DNA of 42,629 nt. Origin: Hyphomicrobiales bacterium. GTDB taxonomy: Bacteria > Desulfobacterota > Desulfobacteria > Desulfobacterales > SpSt-501. The notes under the pieces are model-generated. The model was not told the origin of the DNA, did no database searches, and saw only the letters and a program-made list of their open reading frames with translations. Below are positions 2-42,297 of this stretch, in pieces (position 1 is the stretch's first letter; every line of letters starts with the position of its first letter). The position numbers and the translations under genes were made by a program. The DNA lies in contig JBLMXM010000002.1 in the NCBI GenBank assembly GCA_050257775.1, positions 1 through 42,629 on the forward strand, written 5' to 3'.

Positions 2-1093
2 GAGCACCAGTCGAAGCTGACCCTGATGTCCGAGTCGCTGCGCAACGACGGGCGCGTATGGGTGCCGCAGAAGGCACGCGACACCCGCGCTCCGAGCCAG
101 ATTCCGGAAGCCGCGCGGGACTACTACCTGGAGCGCAAGTATCCGAGCTTCGGCAACCTCGTGCCGCGCGACGTGGCTTCCCGCAACGCCAAGGAGCAGT
201 GCGACCAGAGCAAGGGCGTGGGCGAAACGGGCCTGGCAGTCTACCTGGATTTTGCAGACGCCATCCGGCGCGACGGCCGCGCCGCCATCGAAAAGAAGTA
301 CGGCAACCTGTTCCAGATGTATGATAAAATCACCGGCGAGGATCCTTACCAGACTCCGATGATGATCTACCCGGCCGTGCACTACACCATGGGAGGCCTG
401 TGGGTAGACTACAACCTCATGAGCACCGTCGACGGCCTGTTCGTCCTCGGGGAAGCCAACTTTTCGGACCACGGCGCCAATCGCCTGGGGGCGAGCGCCC
501 TGATGCAGGGGCTGGCCGACGGGTATTTTGTAATCCCCTACACCATTGGAGGTTACCTGGCCGGATCACGCTTCGCGGAGATCACCTGCGACCACCCGTC
601 CTTCATCGATTCCGTGAAACAGGCCCAGGAGCGGACCGCCAGGCTCCTTTCGATCCGCGGCCGACGCACCGTGGACGATATCCATCGGCAGCTCGGCCTG
701 ATCATGTGGGACTACTGCGGCATGTCCCGCAATAACGCCGGCCTGCAGAAAGCCTGCGGCATGGTGCAGGAGCTGCGCGCGGAGTTCTGGAAAAACGTCC
801 GGGTGCCCGGGGTAGAGAACGACTTCAACCAAAGCCTTGAAAAAGCCGGGCGGGTCGCGGATTTCCTGGAGTTCGCGCAGCTCTTGATCGTCGATGCGCT
901 GGCCCGGCAGGAATCCTGCGGCGGGCATTTCAACGAGGCCTTCCAGACCCCGGAAAACGAGGCCCAGCGAGACGATGCCAACTTCTGCCACGTGGCCGCC
1001 TGGAAGTTCACCGGCGATGACCGGGAACCGGTCCTGCACAAGGAACCCCTGGTGTTCGAAAACGTGCACCTCACCCAAAGGAGCTACAAGTGA
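2..1093 (+). CDS. sdhA: Succinate dehydrogenase/fumarate reductase flavoprotein subunit, 5'-truncated by window edge
   Basis: [41 protein letters not shown] and ESCGGHF motifs; frame open from base 2; overlaps Fe-S subunit gene. Confidence 0.95.
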
Positions 1094-1881: not shown

Positions 1882-2131
1882 TGAAGCGATTTTATCGAGC
1901 GGCACCTGAGCCCAGAGGGGCATGCGACCGGGTGAGGACGGCGGCTGACTGGTCGAGCCGCTTACGGGGTCTTGGCCCGGACCCGATACCGAAAGAGCGG
2001 TAAAGCCTCGGCATTCCGAGGCACCTCCTGCGGCTATACTGGAGACGGGCCTGGTCCGGGCATAGACCCCGTTGGCGGCGAGTTTCAGCCGCGACCCGAA
2101 ACCGCTTACCCGGGCGCTTGCTCCTCCGGGC
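1882..2131. repeat. Long rod-like palindromic element, copy A of dispersed family 1 (modules X+Y)
   Basis: Nested stems 1928-1936/2105-2113, 1941-1948/2085-2092, 1964-1972/2064-2072, 1975-1983/2053-2061; sequence shared with 7261-7299 (reverse) and 35963-36096. Confidence 0.8.
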
Positions 2132-2163
2132 CTTGCTGAAAAAAATCCAGCAGAGGGAATCTC

Positions 2164-3438
2164 TCAGGTCGGGTTTTCGGACAGAAGAGTTTGGACCATC
2201 TTGAGCAGCACGGGGATGTCGAAGGGCTTGGCCAGAACGTGGGCGAACCCGAGCGCGGCCAATTCATCCAGCTTGCGGTGGCCCGGAAAGCCCGTGGTGA
2301 TGATCACCTTCATGCCGGCCAGCGCCGGCTCCGCACGAATATTCCGGCAAACCTCCAAGCCATCCATCTCCGGCATGAACACATCCAGAATCAGCAGGTC
2401 GGGCCGGTAGGTGCCGAGCCGGATCGATGCCTCGATGCCGTTGGCGGCTTCCTCCAGGAGATAGCTTTGCGGAATCGCGAGCGCCTCCATGAGGATCTGA
2501 CGGACCATGGGGTCGTCATCCACCACCAGGATCTTGGCAGCCTTCCGTTTCAGCACGGTGGGCAGCACCACGCTGAATGTCGTGCCGCCGGACGGACGGA
2601 GCTCGAAGGTGATCTCCCCACCGTGAGCCTTTACCAGACTGTACGTGACGGAGAGCCCCAGACCGGTTCCGCCTTGCGCCTGTTTGTCGGTGACAAACGG
2701 CATAAAAATACGGTCGCCGAGGTCGGGGGAAACCCCCCGGCCGTTGTCCGAGATGCGCAGGTATATCCGGCCGTCTTTGGCGGTGAAACCCGTCTCGATC
2801 CTTATTTCGCCGTGGGGATGGTCAATCGCTTGAACGGCATTGATCACGATGTTCAAGACGACCTGCTCGATGTTCTGCAGATCGCCCTCGATATCGGGGA
2901 GGCTCTCCGCCAGTTCAAGCTTGACGTGGACTCCGGCCTTGCGCAGGGTGCTCTGGGACAAACGCAGAGCGTTGTGAACCGCCGTGTTGATATTGAGCGG
3001 CGCCTTCTCGGCCATGTTGGACTGACGGGAGAAGTTCTTGAGATCGGCAACGATTTTGACTACGCGGTTGGCCGCCATTTCCATATCAGCGATGAGCTGA
3101 GGCAGATGATCCTTCAGAAAATCATAAGTGAAGCCTCCGAACTTGCGCTCGGGCTGTCGCTGACGCAGATCCATCAGCACCGGCATGAAATCCGACCAGG
3201 TTTTCTGCAGCAGTGGCAAGTTGTAGAGGATGAGATTGATGGGGTTGTTGATTTCGTGGGCCACCCCTGCCACGAGGGTGCCGAGGGTCTCCATTTTTTG
3301 GGCCTGCTGCAGCTGCTGTTCGGTTTCCCTCAAGGCATGCTCGCCTTTAAGCACGAGCGACTCCAGCCGTTTGCATTCGCTGCAGGCGGCGTCCAGTTCC
3401 TGCAGCAGGTCCTCCCGACTGCGGGCCTCATCCGTCAT
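2164..3438 (-). CDS. Cytoplasmic hybrid histidine kinase (HisKA-HATPase-REC)
   Basis: H-box GVAHEINNP, N-box NIVINA, DNGRG, F-box PFVTDK, GTGLGL; C-terminal REC with VVDDD, LDVFMPEMDG and KP. Confidence 0.92.
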   Translation of the reverse strand: MTDEARSREDLLQELDAACSECKRLESLVLKGEHALRETEQQLQQAQKMETLGTLVAGVAHEINNPINLILYNLPLLQKTWSDFMPVLMDLRQRQPERKFGGFTYDFLKDHLPQLIADMEMAANRVVKIVADLKNFSRQSNMAEKAPLNINTAVHNALRLSQSTLRKAGVHVKLELAESLPDIEGDLQNIEQVVLNIVINAVQAIDHPHGEIRIETGFTAKDGRIYLRISDNGRGVSPDLGDRIFMPFVTDKQAQGGTGLGLSVTYSLVKAHGGEITFELRPSGGTTFSVVLPTVLKRKAAKILVVDDDPMVRQILMEALAIPQSYLLEEAANGIEASIRLGTYRPDLLILDVFMPEMDGLEVCRNIRAEPALAGMKVIITTGFPGHRKLDELAALGFAHVLAKPFDIPVLLKMVQTLLSENPT

Positions 3439-3452
3439 GATGTCCGTTCCTC

Positions 3453-3863
3453 TTAGGTGCGCCCTTCGGACTTCAGGATCTTTTCGACACAGCTCCGAAC
3501 GCAGGAAAGCGAAACGTCAGTGCGCATGCCGGGACAAAAGCCGGCCATGATCGTCCAATTGAGCGGGTCTTTCACAACGCTTTCGATAAACGGCCAGCGC
3601 CGGCACATGCGCGGCTTGACCGGATGGATGGCGCAGCCGCCGTCCCAGAAGATGCAATAGCCGTTATTCCGTTGCGCCAGAAGATATCTCCCCCCGGACA
3701 CCCGGCAGTATCGCTCGACGACACCGGAAGGATCGGACTGGATGAACGCGGCAATGGCGGCGATGTCCTCAGCGCTGACATAAGTCCCGCCGTAGCCCTT
3801 GCAGCAATCCCCACAGCGCCTGCAGGCAAAGATATCGTTCGGTGCCAAATCATCTGAGGGCAC
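3453..3863 (-). CDS. YkgJ-family (CxxCxxCC) cysteine-cluster protein
   Basis: CRRCGDCC, CIF...CAIHPVKPRMCRRWPF, CPG. Confidence 0.88.
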   Translation of the reverse strand: MPSDDLAPNDIFACRRCGDCCKGYGGTYVSAEDIAAIAAFIQSDPSGVVERYCRVSGGRYLLAQRNNGYCIFWDGGCAIHPVKPRMCRRWPFIESVVKDPLNWTIMAGFCPGMRTDVSLSCVRSCVEKILKSEGRT

Positions 3864-6687: not shown

Positions 6688-6781
6688 TGGCGGAGAGAGT
6701 GGGATTCGAACCCACGGTGCCGTTATTAGCAGCACACACGATTTCCAGTCGTGTTCCTTCGGCCAGCTCGGACATCTCTCC
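6688..6781 (-). tRNA. tRNA-Ser(GGA)
   Basis: Acceptor GGAGAGA/TCTCTCC, G73, encoded CCA, anticodon loop CTGGAAA, long variable arm, GTTCGAATCC. Confidence 0.97.
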
Positions 6782-6841: not shown

Positions 6842-6934
6842 TGGCGGAGAGGGTGGGATTTGAACCCACGATCCCGTTTTTGACAGGATACCGCTTTTCG
6901 AGAGCGGCGCCTTCAACCACTCGGCCACCTCTCC
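6842..6934 (-). tRNA. tRNA-Ser(CGA)
   Basis: Acceptor GGAGAGG/CCTCTCC, encoded CCA, anticodon loop CTCGAAA, long variable arm, GTTCAAATCC. Confidence 0.97.
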
Positions 6935-7024: not shown

Positions 7025-7299
7025 CTTGTTCGGGATTCTTGCGGCCAAGCCCGCAGGAGTCTGCGCTCCCCATGGGCTTACGCATATGACGCCGCGGGTT
7101 CGGCAGCGCTCCCAGGGATACAAATATGAACCCGAACAAGCGGCGACGGCAGCGGCTATCGTAGGATTTTTCTGTCGGGGGCTGTCTGAGCCTATCGCCG
7201 CGGCTGATGTTGCCGTTGTGGCGGCACCGGCAAGATTGCGGCGGCCCTGGGGGACGCAGTCCCCTCTGGGCCTCGGTGCCACTCGATATATTCGCTCCA
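7025..7299. repeat. Structured intergenic element, copy C of family 1 (module X, reverse orientation)
   Basis: 7261-7299 reverse complement matches 1882-1920 at 32/39 ungapped; stem cttgttcggg 7025-7034 / cccgaacaag 7131-7140. Confidence 0.7.
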
Positions 7300-9804: not shown

Positions 9805-10751
9805 AAACCAAGAGTGTATGGATCATTTTGCTGGTCGCTGCGGTAGCCGTCGTCTACGAATCGGCTTTCACCGTCGGCGAGACTGAACAGGTGGTGATCA
9901 CCCAGTTCGGCAAGATCGTGCGGGATCCCATCCAAGACCCCGGCCTGCATTTTAAGATCCCCTTCATTGAAAAGGCCAACTTTTTCCCCAAGAACATTCA
10001 GGAATGGGACGGGGATCCCGGCCAGATCCCGACCTTGGACAAGACCTTCATCTGGGTAGATGCCTTCGCCCGTTGGAAAATCGTCGATCCGGTCAAATTT
10101 TTTCAGACCCTCAACAATCGGTTCAATGCCGTCAGCCGGTTGAACGACATCATTGACCCCGCCGTGCGCAACTTCATCACCTCGCACAAGCTCATCGACG
10201 CAGTGCGCAAATCCAACCGGGAGTTGGACACGACGGAGATCGGCCTGGAAGACCTGGAAAAAAAGCCGCAGAGCTTTTACGTCATCACCATCGGACGCGA
10301 GAAAATCACCCACGGCATTCTCGAGCAGGCGCAGCCCAAACTCGCCCAGTTCGGGATCGAGCTGGTGGACGTCAAAATCAAGAGCATCAACTATGTGGAG
10401 GAAGTTCGCAAATCGGTCTACGACCGCATGATCGCCGAACGCAAGCAGATTGCTGAAAAATTCCGCTCCGAGGGCAAAGGCGAGGCGCAGAAAGTGCTGG
10501 GACAGAAAGAGAGGGATCTGCAGCAGATCACCTCCGAAGCGTATCGCGTCGCCCAGGAGATCAAGGGCCGGGCCGACGCCGAAGCCGCCAAGATTTACGC
10601 CGACGCGTACGGGGTCGATCCGGACTTTTATGCCTTCACCCAGACGCTTGAAATCTACAACGAATCTCTCAGCAAAGACGCCTCGCTGCTGCTGTCGACC
10701 GATTCGGAGTTTCTCAAGTACTTCAAAGGCGTTCCCGCCAAATCGAAATAG
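9801..10751 (+). CDS. hflC: FtsH modulator HflC
   Basis: TQFGK, PGLHFKIPF, RMIAER, DPDFYAF; ATGA overlap with hflK. Confidence 0.96.
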   Translation: MKTKSVWIILLVAAVAVVYESAFTVGETEQVVITQFGKIVRDPIQDPGLHFKIPFIEKANFFPKNIQEWDGDPGQIPTLDKTFIWVDAFARWKIVDPVKFFQTLNNRFNAVSRLNDIIDPAVRNFITSHKLIDAVRKSNRELDTTEIGLEDLEKKPQSFYVITIGREKITHGILEQAQPKLAQFGIELVDVKIKSINYVEEVRKSVYDRMIAERKQIAEKFRSEGKGEAQKVLGQKERDLQQITSEAYRVAQEIKGRADAEAAKIYADAYGVDPDFYAFTQTLEIYNESLSKDASLLLSTDSEFLKYFKGVPAKSK

Positions 10752-10759
10752 CTTAGGTC

Positions 10760-10802
10760 AAAAAACTCAGCGCCGGCTTAGTGTTGCCCGCCGGCGCTGA
10801 GT
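10760..10802 (-). terminator. Intrinsic terminator between convergent hflC and bS22 genes
   Basis: 13-bp stem actcagcgccggc/gccggcgctgagt with A-run at 10760-10765 (U-tract on minus strand). Confidence 0.7.
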
Positions 10803-10823
10803 GGAGTTAGTCTGGAAACGGCC

Positions 10824-10919
10824 CTATTTACTTCTTCGCTGGTGCCTCGTCTTGGCCAGCAATTTCTTATGCTTGTGTTTTCGCATTTTTTTTCTGCGTT
10901 TCTTGATGACGCTGCCCAA
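10824..10919 (-). CDS. 31-aa basic protein, AURKAIP1/COX24 (DUF1713) family, 30S ribosomal protein bS22 homologue; absent from ORF track
   Basis: TTG start after AAGGGGGGTGAG; translates [31 protein letters not shown]. Confidence 0.92.
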   Translation of the reverse strand: [31 protein letters not shown]

Positions 10920-11543
10920 TGACTCACCCCCCTTCACCCCATAAGCCGACGGCCGCCCGGGAAACGAGCGGCTTTGAGGCTCCGCCACACTCCGAAAAGA
11001 CAAAAACGAGTCAGGGTTTTAAGCGCAACCCCTGCGAAAGCGTGGCACGCATGCGCTCGCTGTGACCGGAAGTCAACAACCGCCTACACCGGGCGGCTTG
11101 GGTTTTCGGCCTTGGACCGGAAAACTATTCCGGCGCTCCGAAATTGAACCTACAGCCTCGTGCCCAGCGTCCGGTTGGCATGGCGGAAATCACCTCATTA
11201 GGTAAAGTTTTTTATTACCACGTATAACCATCGATTGTCCACAATTTTTTAAGCACCTGGAATCTGCTCTATAGCTGTGCTATAGTGCGGGTGTCCAAAC
11301 GGACGACCCTGCAGGCCGCCGTCATAGAATCTGGCTCCGCTCGAAGAATCTGGCTCCGTTCAAACGACGGCAGCAGTCTTTCGGTTGGAACTCGGAAATG
11401 GCAGCATGGACACCGTACCCTTAACGATAACGCCAGCATCGGCATGGGTGGCGGCCTATTCAGAAGTCGTTCAGTCGTCGGTCGAAACCTGACATCATAA
11501 CTAAAGACGAAAACCGTTTAAATCATTTCCCTTCGCCATCCGT

Positions 11544-35900: not shown

Positions 35901-35944
35901 GGCCTGGGTACCTATTCCCCGTTCACATGCCAAGATGCCGCGGC

Positions 35945-36148
35945 GCAGTCCGGATGAGCGGTTGAGGATGGCGGCTGATGGTCCGAGCCGTCCATGAATT
36001 CTTGGTCCGGGCTCCCTCTCCAAACCACGCCGGAGCCATAAGCCGGCGGGGCATCTCCAGCCGCAAATCGGGAACACGGGCCTGCTCCGGCCATAGGATC
36101 CCGCCTTCGACGGGACTTATCCGGGCTGCGGCGCCTGCCATATATTCG
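35945..36148. repeat. Structured element, copy B of family 1 (module Y)
   Basis: Closing stem 35945-35958/36116-36129; 15/16 and 19/21 identity blocks with copy A. Confidence 0.78.
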
Positions 36149-42221: not shown

Positions 42222-42297
42222 GCGCCCGTAGCTCAGGGGATAGAGCGTCAGCCTCCGGAGCTGAAAGCCGCTGGTTCAAGTCCAGCCGGGCGCACCA
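42222..42297 (+). tRNA. tRNA-Arg(CCG)
   Basis: Acceptor GCGCCCG/CGGGCGC, anticodon arm TCAGC-CTCCGGA-GCTGA, GTTCAAGTCC, encoded CCA. Confidence 0.97.

Follow-up and report, generated by a model that had tools for sequence, protein, structure and literature searches.

The DNA analysed here, called the window, is a stretch of 42,629 nucleotides (nt) deposited under the name Hyphomicrobiales bacterium and placed by GTDB in the order Desulfobacterales (assembly GCA_050257775.1, contig JBLMXM010000002.1, positions 1 to 42,629 of the forward strand). Near its left end, between two convergent genes, lies an element that we designate copy A and that belongs to a dispersed family of folded repeats, probably transposable elements of the miniature, inverted-repeat kind (MITEs). 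The gene to its left is sdhB-like, with Fer2_3 and Fer4 domains, and the convergent gene to its right encodes a hybrid histidine kinase with HisKA, HATPase_c and Response_reg domains. The elements of the family are near-palindromes of 220-290 nt without an open reading frame (ORF); no ORF is conserved among them because 1-nt insertions and deletions break any frame. The parts of copy A are listed below; alignment A1, covariance model R1 and subfamilies B and C are introduced in the following sections.

About 1876-2163, + strand: copy A, whole element, between the convergent sdhB-like gene and sensor kinase gene
1876-1909, + strand: left outer arm (module X of the initial annotation), a diverged inverted partner of 2132-2163
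1913-2128, + strand: conserved rod core, full-length match to R1 (module Y plus the outer stem)
1946-1957, + strand: 5' strand of the internal loop; invariant and near-invariant columns of A1, motif common to subfamilies B and C
1986-2046, + strand: tip of the rod, variable in sequence; folds into three small hairpins here and into two in most copies
2079-2087, + strand: 3' strand of the internal loop (cgagtttca); invariant A1 columns A178-C183, kept in subfamilies B and C
2132-2163, + strand: right outer arm or flank, read by eye from the listing of flanks

Fold of copy A

The initial annotation, made from the letters of the window, had described this locus as a single rod capped by three small hairpins. 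The stems that it named were all found in place, namely gcccagagggg (1910-1920) with ctcctccgggc (2121-2131), ccgggtgag with cttacccgg, gcggctga with tcagccgc, acggggtct with agaccccgt, and gcccggacc with ggtccgggc, and RNAfold of 1882-2140 (+) reproduced both the rod and the three-hairpin cap. The minimum free energy of this segment was −147.8 kcal/mol, compared with −109.7±5.0 kcal/mol for 200 dinucleotide-preserving shuffles, none of which folded as well (z −7.66). The minus strand gave a weaker fold (−136.0 kcal/mol, z −5.59). With the outer arms included, the segment 1876-2165 folds at −155.1 kcal/mol.

Module Y had been thought to be nested in the loop of module X. Instead, X is the diverged left outer arm of the element, which pairs imperfectly with 2132-2163. 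When examined by eye, 1876-1909 resembles the reverse complement of 2132-2163 as well as the left flanks of two other copies in the same genome (on contigs C288 and C351), and 2132-2163 resembles the right flank of the copy on C189 and the inverse of the left flanks of those on C351 and C347. The two arms of copy A are loosely complementary only. Directly 3' of the sdhB stop, at 1850-1876 and outside the repeat, there is also a perfect small hairpin (cctaaggcc-cccg-gggcttagg, −11.1 kcal/mol) with no T run following it, which looks like the terminator stem of sdhB itself.

The view that the element is not a 6S, SRP, RNase P, tmRNA or riboswitch RNA was borne out, as no family of Rfam 15 matched it. 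An E-value scan of copy A against Rfam returned a single noise match (E 6.4), and scans of a subfamily-B copy and of an intact main-type copy returned none at E≤1. The literature search, whose sources were covered in part, yielded no description of the family or of a structured MITE derived from IS1595 in Desulfobacterales, which is not proof of absence. We regard the family as new, and it may have an existing MITE entry in ISfinder.

Copies in the genome of the window

Sixty copies of the main type, taken from the window's genome, its genus and six other metagenome-assembled genomes (MAGs), were aligned (alignment A1), and the covariance model R1 was built from the main type only. The genome that contains the window is an assembly of 454 contigs that is 88% complete. 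It holds 41 non-overlapping loci detected with nhmmer and 38 distinct loci detected with R1, in agreement with the prediction of many copies genome-wide. R1 aligned with 25 of the 38 loci at full length with E<1e-44, and gave 66 matches when both strands were counted. At every copy the plus strand scored far higher than its complement, for example 230 versus 69 bits. The core of copy A itself scored 165.3 bits (E 1.4e-46, model positions 1-224), and its reverse strand 48.7 bits. Copies in the same genome are 72-80% identical to copy A by BLAST, and many are truncated. Most copies carry an outer extension that copy A does not have, and a different outer layer groups copy A with four copies, those on C351, C347, C288 and C189.

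The genomic context of 26 copies was read from an ORF listing based on the G+C content of third codon positions, and in our reading of it the copies are intergenic. Among copies with co-directional neighbours, 8 lie in the same sense as the genes and 9 are antisense, and therefore there is no orientation rule; 4 others lie between convergent and 2 between divergent genes, and 3 were unreadable. The neighbouring genes are unrelated housekeeping genes, such as those for ABC transporters, AOR and sigma-54 activators, and the search for recurrent neighbours brought up ubiquitous families only. We also considered ORF-carrying copies in this genome and rejected them, as none of the 5' loop motifs has a 3' partner at an insertion sequence (IS)-like distance. 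Contig C351 (L014) ends, around 3300-3729, in an artefact: what lies right of the copy there, coding sequence included, repeats what lies left of it as an exact reverse complement, the assembler having folded back through the palindrome.

Range of the family

Of 150 other genomes sampled from the order Desulfobacterales, 27 contain the family according to R1, and 20 of 109 genera were positive when the window's own genus is counted. Several carriers have at least 15 scored R1 matches each. Within the window's genus, 7 of 24 genomes were positive by BLAST. In a phylum-wide sample of 150 genomes, about 146 of which lie outside the order, no genome had a match at E≤1e-12. A gapped pattern of two motifs, run against one genome per prokaryotic species, returned at least 112 stretches. 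Most of these are chance matches, since the pattern specifies only 17 bases, and 11 chance matches from other phyla gave no R1 score. The true members among the listed stretches bear the titles Desulfobacterales, Desulfobacteraceae, 'delta proteobacterium' or Thermodesulfobacteriota MAG. In the genomes sampled, the family is Desulfobacterales-wide.

A rod conserved as structure on one strand

The consensus of A1 is an unbranched rod of 49 pairs, with compensatory double changes in 30 of them. The stems of subfamilies B and C are too different for a sequence profile, which missed both; the two subfamilies share their architecture, internal loop and spacing with the main type, and R1 recovered 16 of their copies at full length with 58-88 bits. 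In the alignment of these 16 copies (A2), 95.0% of the cells pair, compared with 74.0% in shuffled alignments and with none of 500 shuffles as high. When the partners were slid by 1-3 columns, only 33-47% paired. Double changes are present in 36 of the 49 pairs.

The pairs also distinguish the two strands. G.U outnumbers A.C in paired cells by 217 to 44 in A1 and by 76 to 3 in A2. With pair sets derived from the opposite strand, the numbers were 38 and 5 in A2, and in A1, where only 14 pairs were recovered, there was a slight excess (21 versus 15). Alifold energies of the plus and minus strands were −70.9 and −11.6 for A1, and −75.8 and −48.7 for A2, and the plus strand was the more stable one in 66 of 76 copies. 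Certain G.U pairs are conserved as such, for example that between A1 columns 25 and 219 (36 of 60 copies) and pair 23-272 of A2 (12 of 16 copies).

The most conserved parts of the rod are not in the stems, and consist of an asymmetric internal loop and a nearby UUA/UUG near-pairing. The loop, UGACUGYCUGAG opposite CGAGUUUCA, is nearly invariant; with the 5' strand read as (U)GA-CUGYCUGA-G and the 3' strand as C-GAGUU-UCA, 8 nt stand opposite 5 nt. In copy A, 1946-1957 is tgactggtcgag, in which two bases differ from the family consensus TGACTGTCTGAG. The distance between the two loop motifs was 118-123 nt in 33 of the 36 copies that matched the looser of two patterns tried. The tip of the rod varies in sequence and is conserved in length; among the 60 copies of A1 it forms two hairpins in 35, three in 11, copy A included, and is unbranched in 10. 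The rod is thus conserved as a structure, with the plus strand favoured.

Insertion polymorphism at the site of copy A

The neighbouring sdhB and kinase genes are syntenic in 25 of 26 other genomes of the genus. The spacer between them is 309 nt here, as opposed to 14, 28, 31 and 39 nt in genomes G006, G004, G010 and G009, respectively. Other relatives carry unrelated inserts of 60-780 nt, and two genomes (G012 and G041) have a copy of another subfamily at the same spot. A contig from a marsh metagenome lacks copy A, with position 1837 joined to 2342 via 201 other letters, and another contig matches 1913-2063 exactly. The orthologous site of copy A is therefore polymorphic for the presence of the element. 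The spacers of G012 (L172, G012:C509:3570-4560) and G041 (L171, G041:C63:2750-3480) also contain runs of the 8-nt unit ctcgttac and other short tandem repeats, as well as partial duplications of element ends beside the full copy.

Among RNA libraries, a single one matched the window, at 6% of its words; it consists of assembled contigs and may contain DNA, and a lack of cover elsewhere in the window carries no meaning. One of its contigs, of 223 nt, holds another copy of the family; the contig carries no strand or end information and is not proof of transcription.

Subfamilies B and C and an IS1595-family partner

The elements of subfamily B extend about 35 nt beyond the rod on each side, and these extensions form inverted ends that read as three variable bases followed by GGTTATC. 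The end motif GGTTATCYACAAARSCCAAGT, with up to 3 mismatches, had 83+84, 26+28 and 49+40 matches in three MAGs, whereas the reversed motif, used as a control, had 0-1 per strand. Inverted pairs of ends usually lie about 270 nt apart. With the ends read in this way, the flanking 8-bp direct repeats were counted in 10 distinct elements, after 4 spurious internal pairs (47-48 nt) and 1 duplicate locus had been removed from 15 rows: 8 of 8 positions agreed in 6 elements, 7 of 8 in 3, and 3 of 8 in 1. Short forms of 47-124 nt, among them one of 74 nt, also occur; they correspond to full elements that have lost the tip between short direct repeats (CCGCC, GAC). In one MAG, four contigs begin within B copies whose interiors are identical, and this identity is a sign of a recent burst.

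An end closely related to that of subfamily B, with a different interior, was present at many contig ends, and a metagenome scan with this related end returned at least 120 stretches. On one metagenome contig (L233), ends of the B type surround a 1.08-kb element with a single ORF of 324 residues, whose product matches Zn_ribbon_IS1595 (3.2e-7), DDE_Tnp_IS1595 (2.2e-29) and the NCBIfam IS1595-family transposase (3.7e-54). A second contig contains a frameshifted copy, and matching ends are also present in the 1.08-kb IS1595-family IS of L200. The sequence shared between the IS and subfamily B is confined to the terminal 21-26 nt or so. On a further contig (L209), a rod element scoring 72 bits with R1 has both ends in exact agreement with the end pattern of the IS, and is flanked by an 8-of-8 duplication. 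The interior of the IS was looked for in G176, and was not in the bin.

Subfamily C has different ends (TAWCTTCTCAAT...), judged by eye to be inverted, and 9-nt flanking repeats were seen, again by eye, in 2 of 6 copies. A pair of terminal inverted repeats 963 nt apart in G177:C437 was considered as one element and rejected, as the two ends, around a small unrelated ORF, seem to belong to separate elements. That region (L188, G177:C437:1150-2250) has an ORF at 467-922 (+) whose 151-residue product looks, in our reading of its sequence, like a small DNA-binding protein.

Main-type elements and resident transposases

Intact main-type elements, which were found in other MAGs, open with a left module some 45 nt long (CTCATGGCC-hairpin-...GCATGAAA), which is followed by the rod and then by a tail (ACCTTATTTTCGTGTTAAAC). 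Inspection of several offsets by eye gave no consistent target duplication for this type. A scan of the window's genome with the left module as a regular expression gave 3 matches, of which those on C157 and C413 precede a rod and that on C307 has no rod following it; abundant 'solo' units were not present. Such units, in which the left module is joined directly to the tail without a rod, do lie beside full elements in L092 (upstream) and L050 (downstream), and may be either products of deletion or the small element from which the family began. Another short repeat, with units like GTTGAGYCGGTTTAGYC in tandem-like runs, is present in the flanks of L046, L096, L134, L146, L139 and L054, and in L096, L134 and L146 a repeat like GTTGAGYCGGTTTAGYC sits inside the 5' arm of the rod.

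The window's genome has a complete-looking IS of the IS1595 family on C286, at about 10476-11395 (L316), with an ORF of 286 residues at 10515-11372 and short inverted ends. It also encodes a protein of 342 residues on C97 (G000:C97:1366-2391(-), L043:835-1863) that combines an IS200-like Y1 transposase domain with a helix-turn-helix like that at the C terminus of DnaA. The initial annotation had noted a loose resemblance of module X to GTAG-type REP palindromes mobilised by RAYT transposases. The conserved core contains no such motif, and C97, the only Y1_Tnp gene of the genome, has neither family members nor X nor main-type ends on its flanks. Of 151 genomes of the order, 106 carry homologues of C97, often in many copies and whether or not the element is there. 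In 5 genomes with the element no homologue was found, and one of these (G117, 98% complete) has at least 15 R1 matches. With no repeats around C97 and no phyletic link, an association with RAYT/Y1 transposases is not supported. In G084, at least 8 homologues of C97 are clustered within about 35 kb.

Searches for the TnpB domain PF07282 were negative in all 6 carriers covered, which were the window's genome and five element-rich genomes, and positive in 8 of 14 reference genomes that served as a control.

Other copies in the window

Two further loci of the window belong to the family.

35935-36139, + strand: a second core, degenerate and of the main subfamily, that has lost part of its 3' arm and lies upstream of a gene for a peptide chain release factor
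7223-7299, − strand: core-less short hairpin of copy A's subfamily with an adjoining X-like arm

The recurrence of module Y 34 kb away corresponds to the former, which scored 55.1 bits with R1 (E 9e-14) and was placed by nhmmer at 35960-36119; the gene beside it carries PCRF and RF-1 domains. The reversed recurrence of module X was likewise found, at 7252-7299 (−), with 79% identity (BLAST, E 1.7e-4). This copy of X is one arm of the hairpin; the segment 7223-7281 folds at −43.6 kcal/mol, and the covariance search with R1 listed no match at 7223-7299. BLAST detected many copies of the family in the window's genome, and a short-word search with X gave only a few weak further ones. Core-less short versions are better read as products of deletion of the hairpin tip. 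The only Rfam matches of the window at gathering thresholds are tRNA genes at 6691-6781(−), 6845-6934(−) and 42222-42294(+).

Discussion

The initial annotation had left the choice between a structured RNA family and a REPIN- or MITE-like element. This proposal is supported in part. The MITE-like half agrees with the insertion polymorphism, the ends and duplications of subfamily B and the IS1595-family partner, and the structured half holds as regards structure, given the covariation, the preference for one strand and the absence of an Rfam match; the part concerning REP and RAYT is not supported. Taking these results together, we consider it likely that copy A is old and probably immobile, and that it belongs to a new, Desulfobacterales-wide superfamily of MITEs that is moved in trans by a DDE transposase and has a strand-specific folded core. 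The short inverted repeats at the outer ends would be bound by a DDE transposase that a resident IS provides in trans, and the element would be moved with duplication of 8 bp of the target. This route is shown for subfamily B, whose ends match those of an IS1595-family IS, and for subfamily C it is suggested by homology of the core. What distinguishes the family is its inner part of some 190-225 nt, the rod with its forked tip and nearly invariant loop. To keep propagating, the element may have to fold as a single strand, be it a transcript or a DNA strand exposed in replication or transposition, and the internal loop would be a putative binding site for a host or transposon factor.

Several points weigh against this interpretation. 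The DDE route and an autonomous partner were found for subfamily B only, and none for the subfamily of copy A. In copy A and the main subfamily, no clean terminal inverted repeats or target duplication could be read. Main-type elements have (T)TAAAC both in the left flank and at the right end of the element itself, and are bordered on each side by a tail-like direct repeat some 16 nt long, with the left flank often repeating the tail; this pattern does not look like DDE transposition and recalls single-strand (Y1/HUH) transposition. The IS on C286, the one IS1595-family IS of the window's genome, has ends unrelated to those of copy A or the main type. Even in subfamily B, what lies between the ends of the IS has nothing in common with the rod, and R1 gave no match in L233 or L200; the rod therefore did not arise from the IS by deletion. 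The 8-bp target duplication is presumably a trait of the IS1595 family. A2 was fitted to the structure of R1, which leans its pair counts towards that structure, although an artefact from this fitting is unlikely given the size of the effect and the sequence-level comparison of the subfamilies. Finally, a DDE transposase needs the ends only, and therefore gives no reason for a strand-specific, covarying core of 200 nt; across subfamilies it is the ends that are the least conserved part, and the rod with its fixed loop that is kept by compensatory change.

A functional small RNA, in the form of a multicopy structured gene or module with a protein-binding loop, that rides different transposon ends and whose function keeps the structure is a possible alternative, albeit a doubtful one. 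Between subfamilies, the stems have been replaced wholesale while the internal loop is nearly invariant and covariation is strong; the excess of G.U over A.C, the conserved G.U pairs, the favoured plus strand, the constant distance between the loop motifs despite a variable tip, the same core inside differing outer ends and the family copy on the RNA-library contig all fit a transcript that is under selection. On the other hand, flanks inspected by eye have no promoter or terminator conserved across subfamilies, orientation to genes is random, copies within one genome are only 72-80% identical with many truncated, short versions without the tip persist, and the RNA trace is one assembled contig, possibly DNA, without strand or ends. 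If the rod were instead the omega RNA scaffold of a TnpB or IscB nuclease in ORF-less elements of the IS605 type, its size of about 200 nt, its heavy structure, the many ORF-less copies and, in the main type, the right-end site before a TTAAAC-like motif would be accounted for. However, PF07282 was not found in the six carriers searched (IscB was not searched as a protein), Rfam, whose families include HEARO and the IS605-orfB motifs, gave no match at E≤10 or E≤1, and the ends of subfamily B are of the DDE type, so that we give this explanation hardly any credence.

The end pattern of the main type raises the question of whether this subfamily, and perhaps that of copy A, moves as single-stranded DNA through a HUH/Y1 transposase, in the manner of the IS200/IS605 'PATE' elements or of REPINs, with the rod as a strand-specific DNA hairpin. 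Besides the lack of inverted ends and target duplication and the (T)TAAAC sites, a hairpin lies immediately within the left end and a hairpin stem in the corresponding position at the right end, folding is strand-specific, and Y1_Tnp genes are common and multicopy in the order. The unflanked C97, the occurrence of its homologues regardless of the element, none being found in 5 carriers, the lack of a GTAG-type REP motif and the fact that homologous B cores clearly move by the DDE route make this unlikely. We regard as more improbable still that the rod is a by-product of palindromic DNA with no function of the folded strand, gene conversion or repair within the molecule keeping its arms similar. 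Near-perfect palindromes are common among MITEs, the tip deletions at short direct repeats are the behaviour of an unstable palindrome, and C351 ends in the fold-back artefact. Nevertheless, homogenization of the arms would not make a conserved asymmetric loop with 8 nt of one sequence opposite 5 nt of another, would not make G.U exceed A.C 5-fold to 25-fold on one strand, and would not hold the loop invariant across subfamilies whose stems share little sequence.

Read as a superfamily of MITEs, the family can be compared with bacterial examples such as Correia/NEMIS in Neisseria, RUP in pneumococcus and Nezha in cyanobacteria. It shares with them the small size (70-290 nt), the absence of an ORF, many dispersed intergenic copies with a patchy distribution between related genomes, the fold into a long hairpin and, as regards subfamily B, inverted ends, target duplication and a resident IS acting in trans. 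It differs in that conservation is highest in an internal rod with a forked tip and a fixed asymmetric loop, and not in the ends; this rod is kept by compensatory change on one strand, is common to subfamilies with differing ends, and is unrelated to the interior of the partner IS. The IS1595-family elements of L233 and L200 have their ends in common with subfamily B, whose duplication is of 8 bp, and the transposase has the zinc ribbon and DDE domain of that family; unlike them, the element encodes nothing and shares the ends only, and the subfamily of copy A does not have those ends. Dispersed intergenic imperfect palindromes that are conserved across species and can fold in transcripts are also known from proteobacteria, as ERIC/IRU and REP/REPIN sequences. 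ERIC sequences are about 127 nt long and REPINs about 70-110 nt, and REPINs are hairpin-forming non-autonomous elements tied to a RAYT gene that they flank and to a GTAG motif. The family described here differs from both in its length of 220-290 nt, its branched tip and, in at least one subfamily, its DDE-type ends with 8-bp duplications, and from REPINs also in that neither a flanked RAYT gene nor a GTAG motif was seen.

In practical terms, the family breaks MAG assemblies, as illustrated by contigs that start inside copies and by one fold-back contig, and R1 can be used to mask or annotate it. As for its biology, MITEs are usually treated as decaying stubs of IS in which only the ends matter. 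Here the ends differ by subfamily, while a folded core of about 200 nt persists throughout the sulfate-reducing order to which the carriers belong. Should spread depend on the fold, this would point to a single-stranded form or a host factor in transposition of the IS1595 type or in the survival of insertions. We also entertain, with considerable reserve, the idea of the rod as a structured module, of RNA or of single-stranded DNA, that is selfish or domesticated and has a function of its own, its GA-containing loop serving as a specific protein site. Several unrelated miniature transposons would have picked it up repeatedly, or it would have invaded their hairpin centres. In that case the structure, and not the ends, would be the unit under selection, and a folded RNA would be spreading through the order by means of borrowed transposases. 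If the core acts as RNA, it would represent a new and widespread class of RNA hidden in repeats.

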